Source: Escherichia coli
GTDB taxonomy: Bacteria > Pseudomonadota > Gammaproteobacteria > Enterobacterales > Enterobacteriaceae
Reading direction: 5' to 3' (one strand)
Length of the DNA: 64,000 nt
Assembly: GCF_002854065.1 (NCBI RefSeq)
Contig: NZ_CP024147.1
Positions within the stretch are counted from its first letter, which is position 1. The number at the start of each line of letters is the position of its first letter. Shown piece by piece: positions 5,086 to 18,717 of the stretch. Position numbers and translations under genes: made by a program. The notes under the pieces were generated by a model. The model had not been told where the DNA came from. It saw only the letters and a program-made list of their open reading frames with translations, and did no database searches.

Positions 5086-6903
5086 CTACCTTAAACCTGC
5101 CCCTCTCATTCGCTCCTCCAGTTCATCCAGAAATGGGGAACGCCCTAGACGCATAGGGCCGTAGCGACCATCAACAAAACCGGAATACAGCATATGCACC
5201 TCGTCCCGTGCGCGGGTCAGCCCCACATAGAAAAGACGTCGGCTTTCACGCAGCTTCTCTGGCGTCTCATTACGCCACGGCAAATTCCCCAGATCTAAGC
5301 CGACCATGATAACCACGTCATATTCGCAACCTTTGGCTGAGTGAAGTGTCAGCAAATTGAGGTGCTCAGGTGAACCGTCACGACCACCTAGGCTCGTGAT
5401 ATCCAACATCGCTAACGCACCGCCTTCGGCAAGTGCTGCAGTCATGCGATCTAGTTGCTCAGCCTGATCAGAAAGCGTTGGTTCAGTTGCCAGCAGGGAA
5501 TCAACGAGACCGTTGCGCAACGACGCGACAAAATCGGATGCAGAATGTTGGTCGGCACGAAGTGCCCAAAGTAGCCTGGTTAACTCCTGCCCCTTACTCC
5601 GGGCGCATGCATCATCCAGCCTTGCCCGATGAAATGCCAGATAACGGTCTATAAGTCCGCGCAGTTGAGGGCGCCCGATACGCCAACCGCCAGCACACCA
5701 TGCTGCGCAATCCTCCACCCAGCTCGTCAAGGCAACTTTGCGATAAGGTGCTGCGGTATCCACACGAATGTAATCAAAACCGCTAGCTGTCACCGCATCG
5801 GCCACAACATCGCCGGCACGGTAGTCCTTGTACAGAATGGCGATATCACCCAGTGTTCGGCCCGGCTTAGCAGCCAACGCAGCAGGAATAATCTGCTCGA
5901 CAGCATAGACAGCCTGATCCCCCAAGCCATCCGGACACAGCTGGAACGCAATGGTTGTCTGGCGGTTTGGGTCGTTTGCGCGATAACCACGAACCTCACC
6001 CAACACCATCTCCGATGCATTCACGATGTCCGCTCCTGATCTATAGTTCAACTGGAGCCGGACTGTTTCAACGTCTCTCCTGCCTGCCAGTTCTAGTAGT
6101 AACGCACCATCGGCACCAGTGAAACCGTAAATAGATTGGTCTGCATCACCCACTGCAAATAAGCGTACGCCTCCCTCGAAAGCCAGACGTTTGACCATAC
6201 GATGGAGTGCCACGCCCAAATCTTGATATTCATCTACCGCAAGGATCGGAAATTTCGCCTGTACTAGGGGCAGAACCCAATCATGCTCAATTATCAGACG
6301 CTGACCAAATATCACCATATCGTCGTAGTCTATCAGCCCTTGCTGCCGCAATGCAGCTTCGTAGGCCTCGGCCCATGCAGCGAGTTCCTCCTCTGTACGC
6401 CAGGCAACGCTGTTGCGATTCAACACCGAACGGCGATGCCGTCCGAGATCAATAGCCTTATAGGGATGGTTTGCGCCAAAGAGACGGTCACCAGATTGTC
6501 GAAGTAACCGTTCGCTCTCGCGCTGAGACGCTACTGACAGCGGAAATGGGATTGGCAGATCGGCCAGTCGCCCATAGGGCATCAACAGATGGCGCAAGCA
6601 GAACCCATGAACGGTTCCAATAAAGAGATTCGGTGCCTCTCTAAGCCCCAGCGCTTCGAGACGACGGGTTAGCTCGCGTGCGCATTCTTGGCTATATGTG
6701 ATACATGCCGCACCACGTGGAGCTTGAACATCCTCAGCTAGGATTCGTGCCAGCTTCAGCACAAGCGTCTTTGTCTTACCACTCCCCGGGCCCGCGAGCA
6801 CCACGCAGTGTCCCTGGGAGTGATACGCGGATAACTGGCCCGGATTCCCGGCCAGCTCGGCAGCCTGAGCTAAGTAGGCTGCACTGACACTACGTGACGG
6901 CAT
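5086..6903 (-). CDS. gajB: Gabija GajB-like UvrD/PcrA-family helicase
   Basis: Walker A VLAGPGSGKTKT, DEYQD box (LAVDEYQDLG) and further UvrD-like motifs; proposed start MPSRSV overlaps gajA stop by about 14 bp; longest ORF extends to 7005, so start is uncertain. Confidence 0.75.
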   Translation of the reverse strand: MPSRSVSAAYLAQAAELAGNPGQLSAYHSQGHCVVLAGPGSGKTKTLVLKLARILAEDVQAPRGAACITYSQECARELTRRLEALGLREAPNLFIGTVHGFCLRHLLMPYGRLADLPIPFPLSVASQRESERLLRQSGDRLFGANHPYKAIDLGRHRRSVLNRNSVAWRTEEELAAWAEAYEAALRQQGLIDYDDMVIFGQRLIIEHDWVLPLVQAKFPILAVDEYQDLGVALHRMVKRLAFEGGVRLFAVGDADQSIYGFTGADGALLLELAGRRDVETVRLQLNYRSGADIVNASEMVLGEVRGYRANDPNRQTTIAFQLCPDGLGDQAVYAVEQIIPAALAAKPGRTLGDIAILYKDYRAGDVVADAVTASGFDYIRVDTAAPYRKVALTSWVEDCAAWCAGGWRIGRPQLRGLIDRYLAFHRARLDDACARSKGQELTRLLWALRADQHSASDFVASLRNGLVDSLLATEPTLSDQAEQLDRMTAALAEGGALAMLDITSLGGRDGSPEHLNLLTLHSAKGCEYDVVIMVGLDLGNLPWRNETPEKLRESRRLFYVGLTRARDEVHMLYSGFVDGRYGPMRLGRSPFLDELEERMRGAGLR

Positions 6904-8674
6904 CGCAGATATACTCCAGTGCTTCACGAATGTAATCCGGGCATACATCCTCCGACACCGAGGGTGCCAGCGCTTGGGCGAACCGCCCTTTGCCAATTCG
7001 CTCAATCAGTTTCAACAACCGGACATTATCAAGCTGGTCCGTGTCATCCACCCACGCCTGTATCCTGTTCAGAGTAGCTCGTCTAGGAGACAATTCCTGC
7101 TCGATAACCAACTTCATGGCTTCGCCCAGTCCACCGGTAAACAGCTCTGGCTCCAGAGTGGTCTCATTGACGAAGCATCCAAAATCTCCGGCACGTGCAA
7201 TCACCTCCTCGGTAGTCATATCATCATGATCAACATCGCTCTCAAGCACGTCTAAGATATTGATAAATCTCTTACGAACCAGCGGCTCTCCATCCTCCTC
7301 AGGATCGCGGTCTGTCAGAATCACATGTGGAATATTGAGTCCCCGCGGCCCTAGGAGCTTCACATACGGAGTGAAATTTGTTCCACCGATCGAGCACACC
7401 GTGATCCCAAGCATATCTAGGGGAATATTAAGAGCATCAGCGAATGCTGGGACAAGAAAGCGTTCAGCATCCCCTTCCACCAAGATCACCCCACGTGAAA
7501 AGAATATTTCGCCGCGAGTGACATCGATATAGCGCTGCAGATCATCTTCGTCCCGCGGCGTAAACGGTGCGTTTGCCGTTGAAACCGCAATCGTCTTCCC
7601 TCCCTCCGGATCATGGCGCAGCAAAACGATGGATCTGATTGGTGTGACGCTGGCGATATGCGGGGAATGGGTGGTCAGGATCGTTGTCAACGGTGTTCCT
7701 TCATCACCATTGTCTCCGTCAGTCCCTAGGAAATAACGGTAAACCAGGCGCTGTACGTGCGGATGTAGGTGCGCTTCCGGCTCCTCGACTACGAAAAACG
7801 TATGGTCTCGTTCTCCGTCATTAACAAGACGATCAAGTTCGAGGCTTTTTAGGGCAAGAAAAATCAGATTAGCTGTCCCCAGACTGGCATCGCCAATGCC
7901 ACGAATGCCACTATCAAGCAGCAAACGCAGGCTACGTAGCAGCGCATCAACGCGAGTCGGTGCAAGTCCGAGCGATACCGGAACGGCATGTTGCTCACCT
8001 GCGATAGCTATCAACCTTTCGCTAATTCGTTCGGCTGTCGCTGCCACCTCATCATGATCAGCCAGTTCCCGTTGAGCCTCATCAACTTGGGTTTGAATCT
8101 CCTCACGAGTCTCGTCGTCCAGAGATGCGGACAGTTCTTCAATAAGCGGTCTTAAGGGTGAATTACGCCAGCTTGAAAGGTCCTTCTCGGCATCACGCAA
8201 CGCGCCTTGAACATCAATGGGCAACATACGGCGAAAGGCACCACCAATATGCATGTCAGGATCAGCTCCACCGAAGATCACATACTCATAATCTTTTAAC
8301 GATTCAGGAGCTCGATTTAACGCGGTTTTGGGCTGAAAGCGGTAGGTAAGACGGGCCACCATCGGAGGCCCCGGATTTAGGACACAGTCATTCAGATGAG
8401 CCATCAATCGGGGATCGTCAGTGAACTCAGTAAGATCCACTGAAATTTCGATGGTCTCCCCCAGTTTGTCTTCGCCCAATCCATCCCAAAAATGTTCAAA
8501 ACCCAGTTGACGGTCACGCTCAGACAACCCTGGGTCAAGAATCAGCTGCAGGCCGCGAATAAAATTGCTCTTGCCAACCTTGTTTTCACCAACAATAACA
8601 ATACTCTCACCCGTTTCAACATCAACATCGGAGAAGTTGGCGAAATTAATTAACCGGATTCGGGAAATCCGCAT
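6890..8674 (-). CDS. gajA: Gabija GajA-like OLD-family ATPase/TOPRIM nuclease
   Basis: 594 aa; N-terminal ABC ATPase P-loop (VGENKVGKSN); C-terminal TOPRIM-like acidic motifs (ILVEGDAE, ILTDRDPEE); immediately upstream of and overlapping the UvrD-like helicase gene. Confidence 0.8.
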   Translation of the reverse strand: MRISRIRLINFANFSDVDVETGESIVIVGENKVGKSNFIRGLQLILDPGLSERDRQLGFEHFWDGLGEDKLGETIEISVDLTEFTDDPRLMAHLNDCVLNPGPPMVARLTYRFQPKTALNRAPESLKDYEYVIFGGADPDMHIGGAFRRMLPIDVQGALRDAEKDLSSWRNSPLRPLIEELSASLDDETREEIQTQVDEAQRELADHDEVAATAERISERLIAIAGEQHAVPVSLGLAPTRVDALLRSLRLLLDSGIRGIGDASLGTANLIFLALKSLELDRLVNDGERDHTFFVVEEPEAHLHPHVQRLVYRYFLGTDGDNGDEGTPLTTILTTHSPHIASVTPIRSIVLLRHDPEGGKTIAVSTANAPFTPRDEDDLQRYIDVTRGEIFFSRGVILVEGDAERFLVPAFADALNIPLDMLGITVCSIGGTNFTPYVKLLGPRGLNIPHVILTDRDPEEDGEPLVRKRFINILDVLESDVDHDDMTTEEVIARAGDFGCFVNETTLEPELFTGGLGEAMKLVIEQELSPRRATLNRIQAWVDDTDQLDNVRLLKLIERIGKGRFAQALAPSVSEDVCPDYIREALEYICDAVT

Positions 8675-14076: not shown

Positions 14077-14418
14077 ATGAAATCTACTGACTCAGAGAAC
14101 GATTCATTTCTCAAGTGGGGTCTGAATCGTAATGTGACACCTTGCTTTGGCGCTCGTCTGGTACAGGAGGGAAACCGGCTGCACTATCTGGCTGACCGGG
14201 CCAGTATCACCGGTAAGTTCAGCGAAGCAGAATGTCTTAAGCTGGATATGGCATTCCCGCATTTTATTAGCCAGATGGAATCGATGCTGACTACTGGTGA
14301 AATGAATCCTCGCCATGCCCACTGTGTCACCCTGTACCACAATGGTTTCACCTGCGAAGCCGATACCCTTGGCAGTTGCGGCTACGTATACATCGCCGTT
14401 TACTCCACCCATCGTTAA
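14077..14418 (+). CDS. CbeA/YeeU/YfjZ-family antitoxin (type IV TA)
   Basis: 113 aa from internal Met; [23 protein letters not shown] is close to the YeeU sequence. Confidence 0.8.
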
Positions 14419-14438: not shown

Positions 14439-14780
14439 ATGAAAACTCTACCTGCAACAAATCCGCAGGCGGCGAAGCTATGTCTGTCGCCCGTGGCTGT
14501 CTGGCAAATGCTGCTTGCACGCCTGCTGGAACAACATTATGGCCTGACACTCAACGACACGCCATTCAGTGATGAAACGGTAATTCAGCAACATATCGAT
14601 GCCGGTATATCTTTGGCCGATGCCGTTAATTTTCTGGTGGAAAAGTACGGGCTGGTTCGTATTGATCGCAGGGGATTCGACTGGCAAGAACAGTCCCCAT
14701 ATCTGCGGGCAGTCGATATTCTGCGGGCGCGACAGGCAACTGGTTTATTGAAAAGAAATCGTATTAGCGCGGCACGGTGA
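14439..14780 (+). CDS. CbtA/YeeV/YkfI-family toxin (type IV TA)
   Basis: 113 aa from internal Met; directly follows the cognate antitoxin; sequence resembles the YeeV/YpjF family. Confidence 0.8.
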
Positions 14781-14783
14781 ATA

Positions 14784-15017
14784 TTGGGAATAGCCTTCCT
14801 GATTCACACTGCAGCTTTCCTTACTTATTTAATTTACTCATTCCAAAAAGCACCTGCCGATGCTGGTTGGTGCTTTTACTTATATGGACGAAATATCATG
14901 CAAATAGAAGCTGTAATTTTAACTGGGCACATTATCGCAAGTACAATCCGGGAATGCTGGGCCGTCGTTGTTGATGGTTTTGACGCATGCGGCGAACAAG
15001 CTTATGATCCAGCTTAA
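14784..15017 (+). CDS. Small hypothetical protein following the toxin (YeeW-like position)
   Basis: 77-aa ORF starting 4 bp after the toxin stop; coding status uncertain. Confidence 0.3.
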   Translation: MGIAFLIHTAAFLTYLIYSFQKAPADAGWCFYLYGRNIMQIEAVILTGHIIASTIRECWAVVVDGFDACGEQAYDPA

Positions 15018-15043
15018 TTTCTTTTCCTCATGAAGGGACGGGT

Positions 15044-16051
15044 ATGGGCAACAGAATGTGGATGATTCGCGGTGACGGCGGCAAGCTCTATGACGATTTT
15101 CGCGATAAGCAAATTGTAGGCATCGGTTGGTCTCAGCTGGCTCCATTAGTCAAACCCGGCCTGTCCCGAGCCCAGTTACTCGCCTTATACCAGGAGGCAG
15201 ATCCCTTAACAAAGCTGGGAACAGCCCGTTCTGGTGCATCGCAGGTCTGGCGTTTTGTGAATGAGATCCAAAAGGGTGATTGGGTTATTACCTATTCGCC
15301 AGCCAACCGTACTTATTTGCTAGGCAAAGTCACATCCGACTTCCAATATCATCCTGAATGGGTGGAAGAGGGGATGGGGATCGCTCGGCAGGTTAAATGG
15401 AATACTCAAGAAATCGACCGCGATAGACTGTCTGTTGCTACCAAAAACACATTGGGTTCTACGCTGACGGTTTTTCAGCTTCCAGAATATGCGCTAGAAG
15501 AGCTTTTGCAGGATAAGAAACCCACTATAGATGTAATTACTCAGAATCCAGTTGCAATGGATGAAGATGAGGTCGTTTCTGATCCGCTTCGCGATATGGA
15601 AATGCTGGCGTTTGAGGGTATCAAAGATCGTATTAACTCTCTTGATTGGGACGAGATGCAAAATCTTGTTGCCGGAGTTTTACGCAGTATGGGCTATAAA
15701 ACGCAGGTTTCACCTGCGGGAGCCGATCGGGGTAAAGACATCATTGCTTCACCTGATGGGTTCGGTTTTGAAAATCCGCGTATTATCGTTGAGGTAAAGC
15801 ACCGCAGGGAACAGATGGGAAGCCAACAGATACGCAGCTTTATCGGCGGTCGCCATAAAGACGATCGCGGGCTTTATGTCAGTACAGGGGGTTTTACGAA
15901 AGATGCTCGATATGAAGCCGACCGTTCGACGATACCACTGACGCTCTGGACACTTGATGATCTCGTCCGTGCGCTTATTGAGAACTACGAACAAGTTGAT
16001 ATCGAGACTAAACTTTTGGTGCCTCTGAAGAAAACTTTCCTGCCTGCCTGA
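15044..16051 (+). CDS. Mrr-cat (PD-(D/E)xK) restriction-endonuclease-like protein with an uncharacterised N-terminal domain
   Basis: C-terminal half matches the Mrr catalytic core pattern (GADRGKDIIA...IIVEVKHRRE...QQIRSFIGG...GLYVSTGGFTKDA); N-terminal ~160 aa does not look like the K-12 Mrr N-terminal domain. Confidence 0.65.
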   Translation: MGNRMWMIRGDGGKLYDDFRDKQIVGIGWSQLAPLVKPGLSRAQLLALYQEADPLTKLGTARSGASQVWRFVNEIQKGDWVITYSPANRTYLLGKVTSDFQYHPEWVEEGMGIARQVKWNTQEIDRDRLSVATKNTLGSTLTVFQLPEYALEELLQDKKPTIDVITQNPVAMDEDEVVSDPLRDMEMLAFEGIKDRINSLDWDEMQNLVAGVLRSMGYKTQVSPAGADRGKDIIASPDGFGFENPRIIVEVKHRREQMGSQQIRSFIGGRHKDDRGLYVSTGGFTKDARYEADRSTIPLTLWTLDDLVRALIENYEQVDIETKLLVPLKKTFLPA

Positions 16052-16211: not shown

Positions 16212-16248
16212 TTCGAGTCCGGCCTTCGCACCTTCGCACCTTCGCACC
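16212..16248 (+). repeat. Degenerate tRNA 3' end repeat (leuX-like), probable island attR
   Basis: TTCGAGTCCGGCCTTCGCACC resembles the T-arm/acceptor 3' end of tRNA-Leu (leuX); TTCGCACC is triplicated and ends in CCA; no full tRNA is present. Confidence 0.55.
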
Positions 16249-16450
16249 ATCGGAACATCAATAGACATCAACGGACGTTTTTTTATGACTGAAATCCGCG
16301 CCACACAAGGCTTTTCGCTATTTTTCGCTCAACCTAAGTCAACCTACATCAACTTACTGATGTGGATACAGCTACAGCTGCGGCTATACCCCGATTCGAT
16401 AATGTTTGTACCCACACAAAACCCTTGAAAGGCTACAAGGCTGAAATTGT

Positions 16451-16669: not shown

Positions 16670-17014
16670 TGATCGTTTCCAGCAACCTTTACTTACTCAC
16701 TTCGAACTGCATCCTCGTAGACTGTTCCACTACAATAATCGAAAAGGCGCGGATGTCCATTCAGGTATCCCGCTAATACGTATAGCAATAACAATGGCTT
16801 ATGCGGCGCGCGCTGTTCACCCTTGTGCCAGATTTTTATATTGGCAATTGCCTGCTGTAGCGATTTACTGGAAGCTATTGATATCCCTGGCAGTGAAATA
16901 ATTGCGATCATGCTCGCAAATTTTCTGCTGTTCAAGCCTGCAAGTGAAGATATATTACCTTGATCTCATTTGTTTTTTTGCTGCCTGTTCTGAGAACGTA
17001 TAAGGACATTCTCC

Positions 17015-17665
17015 ATGAATAAACTCCCTGATCATCTTCCGCGGCGGTATATCATCGAAGCTATCCATTTATGGGATGCGGGAGAAACTCATCAGTTCCA
17101 GCCTGCGCGGTTGTATGAGATTGAATATCATGGCCGACGTTACCCCTCGAAGGCGATTGCTGGCATCGCAGCGACATTGATGACGGGGACGCAATTTACC
17201 CCTGCGGATTTCACCGGCGGAATAAAATCTAAATGTGTCAAGCTACTCATAGAGCAGGGATTTCATATTCATCTGGATAAAGCCGCTGCGGCTCCCATAG
17301 CCGACGTTCTGTTCCCGGATGAGTTGCCGTCGCAGGAGACATACCTTGAAGGTGCGGCGATAAAGGTGACAGTAAACCGCTATGAACGCGATAAAAAGGC
17401 CCGAGATAAAGCGGTCGAACATCATGGATGCCAGTGCAACGTATGCGGTGTTGATCTGGTGAAGATCTATGGTGATATCGCTGAAGGCTTTATCCATGTG
17501 CATCACCTGGTGCCGCTGTCAGCCATTAAAGAGGATTACCAGCTGGATCCAGTTAATGATTTGCTGCCTGTGTACCCTAATTGCCATGCGATGTTGCACC
17601 GACGCAAACCACCGTTTACGCCGGAGCAGTTAAAAGCGCTGATGGATGCGAATAAATCAAATTAA
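17015..17665 (+). CDS. HNH endonuclease-domain protein (McrA-like, putative type IV restriction nuclease)
   Basis: C-terminal HNH signature HHLVPLS...DLLPVYPNCHAMLH with upstream CQCNVCG zinc-binding pair; N-terminal ~110 aa uncharacterised. Confidence 0.65.
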   Translation: MNKLPDHLPRRYIIEAIHLWDAGETHQFQPARLYEIEYHGRRYPSKAIAGIAATLMTGTQFTPADFTGGIKSKCVKLLIEQGFHIHLDKAAAAPIADVLFPDELPSQETYLEGAAIKVTVNRYERDKKARDKAVEHHGCQCNVCGVDLVKIYGDIAEGFIHVHHLVPLSAIKEDYQLDPVNDLLPVYPNCHAMLHRRKPPFTPEQLKALMDANKSN

Positions 17666-17672
17666 TGAACGC

Positions 17673-18653
17673 TCACCTTTCGCGCCAAAACTGCAAAATT
17701 GCTTCTACAAACTTGTCAGAAATAATCCCCCGACGGGCTGCCGTGCTGAAATGACTGCTTCGCAGTGCCGTCGTCCAGTTCTCCGGTGACCGGTACGCTG
17801 AACCGTAATATCCCGTGCTTAAATCGTCCGGGTCTTCATCAGGCGCGTTCGTCAGTCCTCTTTCACCTTGTTGCTGGAAGTCGACGAAAATAATATTGGC
17901 TAAAACATTATTTTGATAATTGCCATAAATAACTTCATACGCATGAGGGAAATTTTCTTTCCAGTACCAGGTGGTATCGCCGCAAAACCACGGTGCGTCA
18001 GTAATATTATTAAGCTGAGAATGGTATTGTTTTAGATCCCTACGAAAGGCTTCAACCATATGATTAAAGTGTTGAGGGTGTGACGCGTAGTCACTGGTCA
18101 TTAAGTCAAATTCGCCTTGCATCCAGCATACGCCGAGGAATTTGTTATGCGGATTTTTTGCCAGTGCGGCTCGCGTTCTGCTGACTAAATCCTGGTATAG
18201 CGGAGTATCCGTTCCCCAACGACAAGCATCATGGCTGGCTCCGTGCCGTTCTGAATATGTTCCTTCGCTGCCCGCGGTAAAAGCCGATCCGCCACGGCAA
18301 CACGGAACGATGAGAACCCCTGCATTATCAGGAATAAAGGGCAGTAATTTCCGTGCTATATGCAGTGCCTGGCCAACGGTGCCGTACTGTGTTTGATGAT
18401 TCGTTGCCAGAGGATGGTGATAACCCTGCATATCCTGAACATCGTGTGGGCAGTGAGTCAGTGGAATAATGTCGTTAAAGTGACATGACGGGCCTCCGGG
18501 ATGCGTATGCGCAAATCTCGCTAATTGTTTAATTCTGGGATGAGGCGCATCTTCCCTGTCCGGTAATGGCAGTCCTTCGCCATACGCCATGGCATTAGAC
18601 TGACCAGCAACGGTAAGAATATAGTAATAATCAGGCGATATTATTGCGTTCAT
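17673..18653 (-). CDS. nanS: NanS, 9-O-acetyl-N-acetylneuraminate esterase
   Basis: Matches K-12 NanS (YjhS) from MNAIISPDYYY; conserved position in the nanCMS operon. Confidence 0.85.
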   Translation of the reverse strand: MNAIISPDYYYILTVAGQSNAMAYGEGLPLPDREDAPHPRIKQLARFAHTHPGGPSCHFNDIIPLTHCPHDVQDMQGYHHPLATNHQTQYGTVGQALHIARKLLPFIPDNAGVLIVPCCRGGSAFTAGSEGTYSERHGASHDACRWGTDTPLYQDLVSRTRAALAKNPHNKFLGVCWMQGEFDLMTSDYASHPQHFNHMVEAFRRDLKQYHSQLNNITDAPWFCGDTTWYWKENFPHAYEVIYGNYQNNVLANIIFVDFQQQGERGLTNAPDEDPDDLSTGYYGSAYRSPENWTTALRSSHFSTAARRGIISDKFVEAILQFWRER

Positions 18654-18717
18654 ATAAATTTCGCGTAATTGAAATGACAAATTGATAGCAGGGCCCCTTT
18701 ACCGGGGCCCTGAAGCG

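Follow-up and report, generated by a model that had tools for sequence, protein, structure and literature searches.

A DUF8426-Mrr_cat protein encoded at the edge of a leuX-associated island in Escherichia coli is a probable single-chain, modification-dependent restriction endonuclease

The gene at 15044–16051 of the window (the whole 64,000-nucleotide stretch of E. coli DNA analyzed here) encodes a protein in which an N-terminal domain assigned through its homologues to the PF28530 family, with a predicted EVE/YTH-like fold of the PUA superfamily, is joined by a linker to a C-terminal Mrr_cat nuclease domain (Table 1). Taking family matches, predicted structure, and comparative analysis together, we consider its product likely to be a restriction endonuclease of the modification-dependent (type IV) kind that stands alone and consists of a single chain. 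Proteins of this architecture class are already recognized; what is new here is a functional prediction for an uncharacterized and widespread family. A full-text literature search returned no paper on PF28530, DUF8426, WP_001757896, or EVE-Mrr-type names.

Table 1. Features of the DUF8426-Mrr_cat gene and of the surrounding island, in window coordinates
Feature	Coordinates	Strand	Basis or remark
GajB	5086–~6903	-	PADLOC; RefSeq label only "ATP-dependent helicase"
GajA	6890–8674	-	PADLOC; RefSeq label only "ATP-dependent nuclease"
YeeU/CbeA antitoxin	14077–14418	+	RefSeq annotation of identical DNA, transferred by offset
CbtA toxin	14439–14780	+	RefSeq annotation of identical DNA, transferred by offset
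Candidate own promoter, TTGACG-17-TATGAT	14980–15008	+	Consensus scan
Shine-Dalgarno-like motif, GAAGGGA	15032–15038	+	Direct reading; 5 nt 5′ of the ATG
Complete CDS, 335 aa, DUF8426 + Mrr_cat "restriction endonuclease"	15044–16051	+	ORF list; RefSeq-identical genes
N-terminal domain DUF8426 (PF28530), predicted modified-base reader, aa 1–158	15044–15517	+	EVE/YTH-like PUA-superfamily fold (predicted)
Linker, aa ~159–197	15518–15634	+	Low pLDDT; variable length and sequence in alignment
Mrr_cat PD-(D/E)xK nuclease domain, aa 198–310	15635–15973	+	Pfam PF04471
Catalytic D232	15737–15739	+	Conservation; alignment to MspJI and K-12 Mrr
Catalytic E250	15791–15793	+	Conservation; alignment to MspJI and K-12 Mrr
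Catalytic K252	15797–15799	+	Conservation; alignment to MspJI and K-12 Mrr
leuX 3′-end-derived attR-like repeat	16212–16249	+	TTCGAGTCCGGCCTTCG + CACCTTCG CACCTTCG + CACCA

The open reading frame starts with ATG, and the N terminus of the encoded protein reads MGNRMWMIRGDGGKLYDDFRDKQIVGIGWSQ. RefSeq holds the identical gene as WP_001757896.1, labeled only "restriction endonuclease"; an NCBIfam search with the protein gave no match, and GC content shows no sharp signal at the gene. The candidate promoter is a positional suggestion only, the count of sigma-70-like sites in the region not exceeding that in shuffled sequence.

The C-terminal half matches Mrr_cat over nearly the whole model (E 3.6e-24, model positions 2–114 of 115). 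The three residues assigned to catalysis are all present: in an alignment of 38 homologues, reaching down to ~36% identity, Lys252 is invariant, Asp228 and Asp232 are conserved in at least 90% of sequences, and Glu250 is exchanged for glutamine alone, the residue likewise found in Mrr and MspJI. Pairwise alignments show that the G-x-D…(E/Q)-x-K arrangement is common to K-12 Mrr and MspJI. An earlier note on this DNA, made from the letters alone, had assigned this half to the Mrr catalytic PD-(D/E)xK type, and the assignment is borne out both by the family match and by the conserved D/E/K residues, whose possible absence was checked.

The same note had held that the N-terminal ~160 residues do not resemble the N terminus of K-12 Mrr, and on this point too it was right. 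No match to Mrr_N (PF14338) was found in the window protein by Pfam even at E ≤ 10, whereas K-12 Mrr (from NC_000913.3) scores E 9.3e-20 for this model in the same kind of scan. A direct search for an alignment between the two proteins by BLASTP found none in the N-terminal domain; the catalytic part alone aligns (residues 234–325, 31% identity over 94 aa). The N terminus had no Pfam match at all in the library searched, which lacks PF28530, but precomputed annotations place this family, named DUF8426 at the homologue loci, at the N terminus of all 120 homologues among the matches listed, including one that is 99% identical to the window protein (P0001). PHROGs matches the domain only to a family of unknown function, phrog_10226. 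Searches of PDB sequences with the protein and with family profiles gave no credible match to the N-terminal domain; two weak matches, to an ADP-ribosyltransferase fragment at E 0.18 and to "Rhobin9" at E 0.0065 along a helical stretch, were rejected as spurious, since both miss the β-barrel core.

Structure prediction, which the earlier note had suggested as a check on this domain, yields an EVE/YTH-type fold of the PUA superfamily. The AlphaFold2 model of the full-length protein, built from an 80-sequence alignment, has a mean pLDDT of 91.6 and is of low confidence only at residues ~160–180, which places the linker there: an acidic segment (pLDDT 59–60 for residues 161–180) is followed by a helix that runs into the nuclease domain. 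The predicted N-terminal fold is a PUA-type β-barrel and not a winged helix. In fold comparisons it scores highest with the EVE protein PH1033 (11.6) and the EVE-HNH modification-dependent endonuclease VcaM4I (11.0), followed by the YTH domains of YTHDC2, YTHDC1, MRB1, YTHDF1, and CPSF30 (9.2–10.5), ASCH (8.1), THYN1 bound to 5mC DNA (7.8), and the N-terminal readers of archaeal McrB (6.3–7.2). At the sequence level neither Pfam EVE (PF01878) nor YTH (PF04146) matches the window protein; when all members of the alignment were scanned, EVE was the top Pfam family, but at marginal E-values, with 3 of the 68 reaching E ≤ 0.1 and a lowest value of 3e-3. The family alignment shows conserved aromatic (Trp6, Phe71, Tyr84, Tyr91, Trp119), basic (Arg9, Arg89, Arg115, Arg126), and polar (Asp127, Asn135) residues in the domain, a set such as would be expected of a nucleic-acid-binding domain with a base pocket.

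Comparison of the whole protein with known structures and families points in the same direction. A Foldseek search of the PDB with the full model returns MspJI first (E 2e-7) and then AspBHI (E 2e-4), in alignments of ~290–355 columns that span both domains. The protein also matches the PADLOC candidate system PDC-S02 from end to end (model PDLC04819, E 1.8e-81, residues 1–335 against model positions 1–330 of 334). DUF8426 itself is found with other effectors: it is fused to GmrSD_N and a Schlafen/AlbA_2 (SLFN_AlbA_2) domain in a 1,176-residue metagenomic protein (P0256; locus L012 524–4054), at the N terminus of McrB/YdiS-like Methanobrevibacter proteins of 850–895 residues (AFDB A0A166AJL7 and A0A315XR55; TM 0.87–0.90, 32–34% identity), and inside the PADLOC "REase_II" model of 857 positions. 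Among the comparative arguments for a reader domain that targets restriction, the strongest is this attachment of DUF8426 to three type IV effector modules that are unrelated to one another. The view that such a reader-nuclease fusion is typical of modification-dependent type IV enzymes, advanced from the sequence in the earlier note, gains support from the predicted PUA reader fold, the Mrr_cat domain, and the match to MspJI and AspBHI, while remaining an interpretation. A further apparent fusion is found in one NCBI genome, where a 531-residue protein (P0002) carries a ~195-residue AAA_11 (PF13086) helicase-like fragment in frame before a 99%-identical copy of the window protein; this more probably reflects read-through gene calling following a rearrangement than a genuine fusion.

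By megablast the gene is present in 42 of 5,426 complete E. coli genomes, always chromosomal, in single copy, and at 90–100% identity. The exact protein occurs on 914 contigs, and its 90%-identity cluster numbers 1,262 members from Klebsiella, Enterobacter, Citrobacter, Salmonella, Yersinia, and E. coli. Searched against 1.84 billion cluster representatives, residues 1–165 match 1,671 clusters at E ≤ 1e-3, most of which consist of ~330-residue proteins with the same two-domain layout. Homologues in Pseudomonas, Burkholderia, and Xanthomonas keep 63–65% identity, which implies purifying selection.

The genomic neighborhoods of the homologues vary. The Pseudomonas alkylphenolica gene lies directly upstream of a P4-type integrase, that of Xanthomonas translucens is flanked by a ParE toxin and a type I restriction-modification (R-M) system, that of Rahnella lies downstream of RadC, CbeA, CbtA, and DUF4942, and that of Zobellella has HipA on one side and, on the other, a cluster containing both SIR2 and a type I R-M system; on metagenomic contigs the neighbors are a type I R-M system and a DpnI-like fragment. 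No conserved partner gene was found across the seven contexts compared, which marks it as a single-gene system. There is no adjacent DNA methyltransferase gene in the window or in the identical E. coli loci, and the methyltransferases near homologues are all parts of complete type I systems. The gene is located ~270–350 bp upstream of, and co-oriented with, the tyrosine integrase of the next element in two distant genera (L005 8001–10518 in P. alkylphenolica and L001 18001–20619 in E. coli strain 744), and the DUF8426-Mrr_cat gene appears repeatedly to occupy the final cargo position where islands adjoin.

In the window the gene follows genes for DUF932, an antirestriction protein, RadC, the YeeU/CbeA antitoxin, and the CbtA toxin; the RefSeq annotation of identical DNA agrees with the earlier placement of the gene directly after a CbtA/CbeA-type toxin-antitoxin pair. 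A functional pairing with CbtA/YeeU was rejected, the pair being absent beside the Pseudomonas, Xanthomonas, Zobellella, and metagenomic homologues. The attR-like repeat, ~160 bp downstream of the gene, is a copy of the last ~22 nt of the tRNA-Leu gene leuX: a 17-mer within it is identical to the 3′ end of K-12 leuX (acceptor/T-arm), with 0 chance matches expected, and it contains a tandem expansion of the 8-bp unit CACCTTCG relative to the tRNA 3′ end. ARAGORN finds no tRNA genes in the window. Homology with E. coli strain 744 is lost at 16232, within the repeat; exactly at this break, strain 744 has a second, integrase-led island with Hachimoji-like HamA/helicase genes and IS elements. The leuX-identical repeat, together with the break and its integrase, indicates that the earlier description of the gene as lying just inside a tRNA-derived attR-like repeat at the island edge is correct.

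The same island carries a complete Gabija pair ~6–10 kb upstream (GajA, E 3.7e-233; GajB, E 2.3e-258). Near-identical DNA in NZ_CP178662.1 has an argonaute/piwi family gene ~8 kb upstream of the position of the window start (L002 1–403), which suggests that the wider leuX-side region, beyond the left end of the window, is rich in defense genes. Immediately outside the island, 16693–16935 (minus strand) is a remnant that in other DNA carries the label of a truncated "phosphorothioated DNA-binding restriction endonuclease"; 17015–17665 (plus strand) encodes an intact 216-residue HNH endonuclease with weak PADLOC matches to type IV mREases (E 1e-4). The two may be a decayed second modification-dependent nuclease locus. 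Beyond them, at 17673–18680 (minus strand), a NanS-like sialate O-acetylesterase ORF of 335 residues is intact in the window but annotated as a truncated pseudogene in NZ_CP178662.1, which is 99% identical.

Base flipping is established for VcaM4I, THYN1, SRA, and YTH proteins. By analogy, the DUF8426 module, of EVE/YTH type by its predicted fold, would bind DNA and probably flip a modified base into a pocket formed by the aromatic and polar residues conserved in the family. Some 25–35 residues of flexible linker would tether it to the nuclease domain with Asp232, Glu250, and Lys252, and this tethered domain may cut the DNA nearby, as in MspJI, AspBHI, and VcaM4I. The hosts are Enterobacterales, which are Dam+ and mostly Dcm+, and the enzyme must therefore spare G6mATC and C5mCWGG. 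The type I m6A methyltransferases beside several homologues imply that type I sites are spared as well, which makes a simple m6A target unlikely. If all these sites are spared, the target is expected to be another modification, or another sequence context, on phages or incoming mobile DNA, the candidate modifications being 5hmC, with or without glycosylation, 4mC, and hypermodified bases. A bolder version, possible but unlikely in our judgment, is that DUF8426 forms a distinct EVE/YTH-like branch that reads a modification outside the characterized type IV repertoire, such as a hypermodified pyrimidine, a deazapurine, or a particular glycosylated hmC, any of which would be compatible with hosts carrying Dam, Dcm, and type I m6A methylation.

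The predicted fold also admits a different substrate. RNA binding is possible for YTH and EVE domains, and the reader might sense modified or structured RNA, or a phage-induced nucleic acid, with the nuclease acting as an abortive-infection or toxic effector. We regard this as improbable, since the characterized members of Mrr_cat are DNA endonucleases, DUF8426 is also fused to the DNA-acting GmrSD and McrB-like effectors, and the closest whole-protein structural matches, MspJI and AspBHI, are DNA enzymes. The idea that the protein is an EcoKMrr orthologue that has diverged, with the winged-helix reader and the m6A/m5C specificity of the canonical enzyme, has scarcely any standing: the two proteins have Mrr_cat in common, and some databases label members "Mrr restriction system protein (EcoKMrr)", but the identity of the N-terminal domain with that of EcoKMrr is refuted by the Pfam scan at E ≤ 10, by a BLASTP alignment confined to the catalytic region, and by the predicted PUA-type β-barrel.

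The gene might instead be an inactive or decaying passenger at the island edge, in which case its product would be a relic or a sensor whose nuclease is dead. Databases do contain truncated copies, and the window protein has a secondary Pfam match (E 6.7e-5) to NA-iREase1, a family described as "inactive restriction endonuclease"; this match carries no weight, however, because the active K-12 Mrr gives it too. A PDC-S02 gene picked at random from a cold-seep metagenome failed to protect E. coli B against T4, T5, or T7 (PMC12881386), which also speaks against the preferred reading, but that gene may or may not have carried DUF8426; no other functional test of PDC-S02 was found in the literature. 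Against decay stand the intact ORF, the conservation of the catalytic D/E/K residues across phyla, the occurrence of the identical protein on 914 contigs, the spread of its 90% cluster across Enterobacterales, and the purifying selection implied by the identity kept in Pseudomonas, Burkholderia, and Xanthomonas, so that we give this reading very little credence and retain that of an active modification-dependent restriction endonuclease.

If that reading is right, it would provide a function for DUF8426, a family that bacteria and archaea carry in ~1,670 clusters at 50% identity, a mechanism for PDC-S02, which is common in genome surveys, and a second defense module beside Gabija in a leuX-associated island that moves among Enterobacterales. 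MspJI, AbaSI, and VcaM4I serve as tools for mapping DNA modification. If DUF8426 reads a novel modification, the ~330-residue DUF8426-Mrr_cat proteins would be a widespread new specificity class and possibly a source of epigenomic reagents. As the protein is small, single-chain, and without a cofactor subunit, its specificity should be easy to test.

Among known systems, the EcoKMrr type IV enzyme of K-12 has an Mrr_cat nuclease homologous to that of the window protein, but its reader is the winged-helix Mrr_N, in contrast to the EVE/YTH-like DUF8426; homologues of the window protein often adjoin type I R-M loci, as K-12 mrr adjoins hsdRMS. The VcaM4I/TspA15I group (PDB 6YEX; PMC6765204) consists of 5hmC/5mC-dependent EVE-HNH enzymes, whose nuclease is HNH and not PD-(D/E)xK; the VcaM4I reader is only ~10% identical to DUF8426, and the Pfam EVE model does not match the window protein. 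Fusions of PUA-superfamily domains to nucleases are modification dependent by experiment, although the sole PUA-PD-(D/E)XK case in that study is YenY4I, where a DUF3427 domain is present in addition (Lutz et al., 2019; PMC6765204). The window protein belongs by architecture with the EVE-/YTH-like-PD(D/E)XK fusions, cataloged in "a substantial variety" as putative type IV enzymes together with rare GmrSD and McrB fusions of such readers (Bell, Wolf and Koonin, 2020; PMC7641849), and it has the same predicted function; DUF8426 is too divergent for the Pfam EVE model. PDC-S02 is a candidate system that brings together Mrr_cat proteins whose N-termini are of several kinds. The closest likeness is to MspJI and AspBHI (PDB 4F0P and 4OC8), which have the same domain order, with a base-flipping reader of the PUA superfamily at the N terminus and an Mrr-like PD-(D/E/Q)xK nuclease at the C terminus, and which, like the window protein, are single-chain and without a methyltransferase; for the nuclease part, MspJI also ranks first among PDB sequences. 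The two enzymes are nevertheless just 13–16% identical to the window protein in sequence, MspJI is longer (~450 versus 335 residues), and its reader is SRA-like whereas that of the window protein is closer to EVE/YTH. MspJI cuts at 5mC and 5hmC in CNNR and would thus attack the Dcm sites present in the hosts of the window protein.
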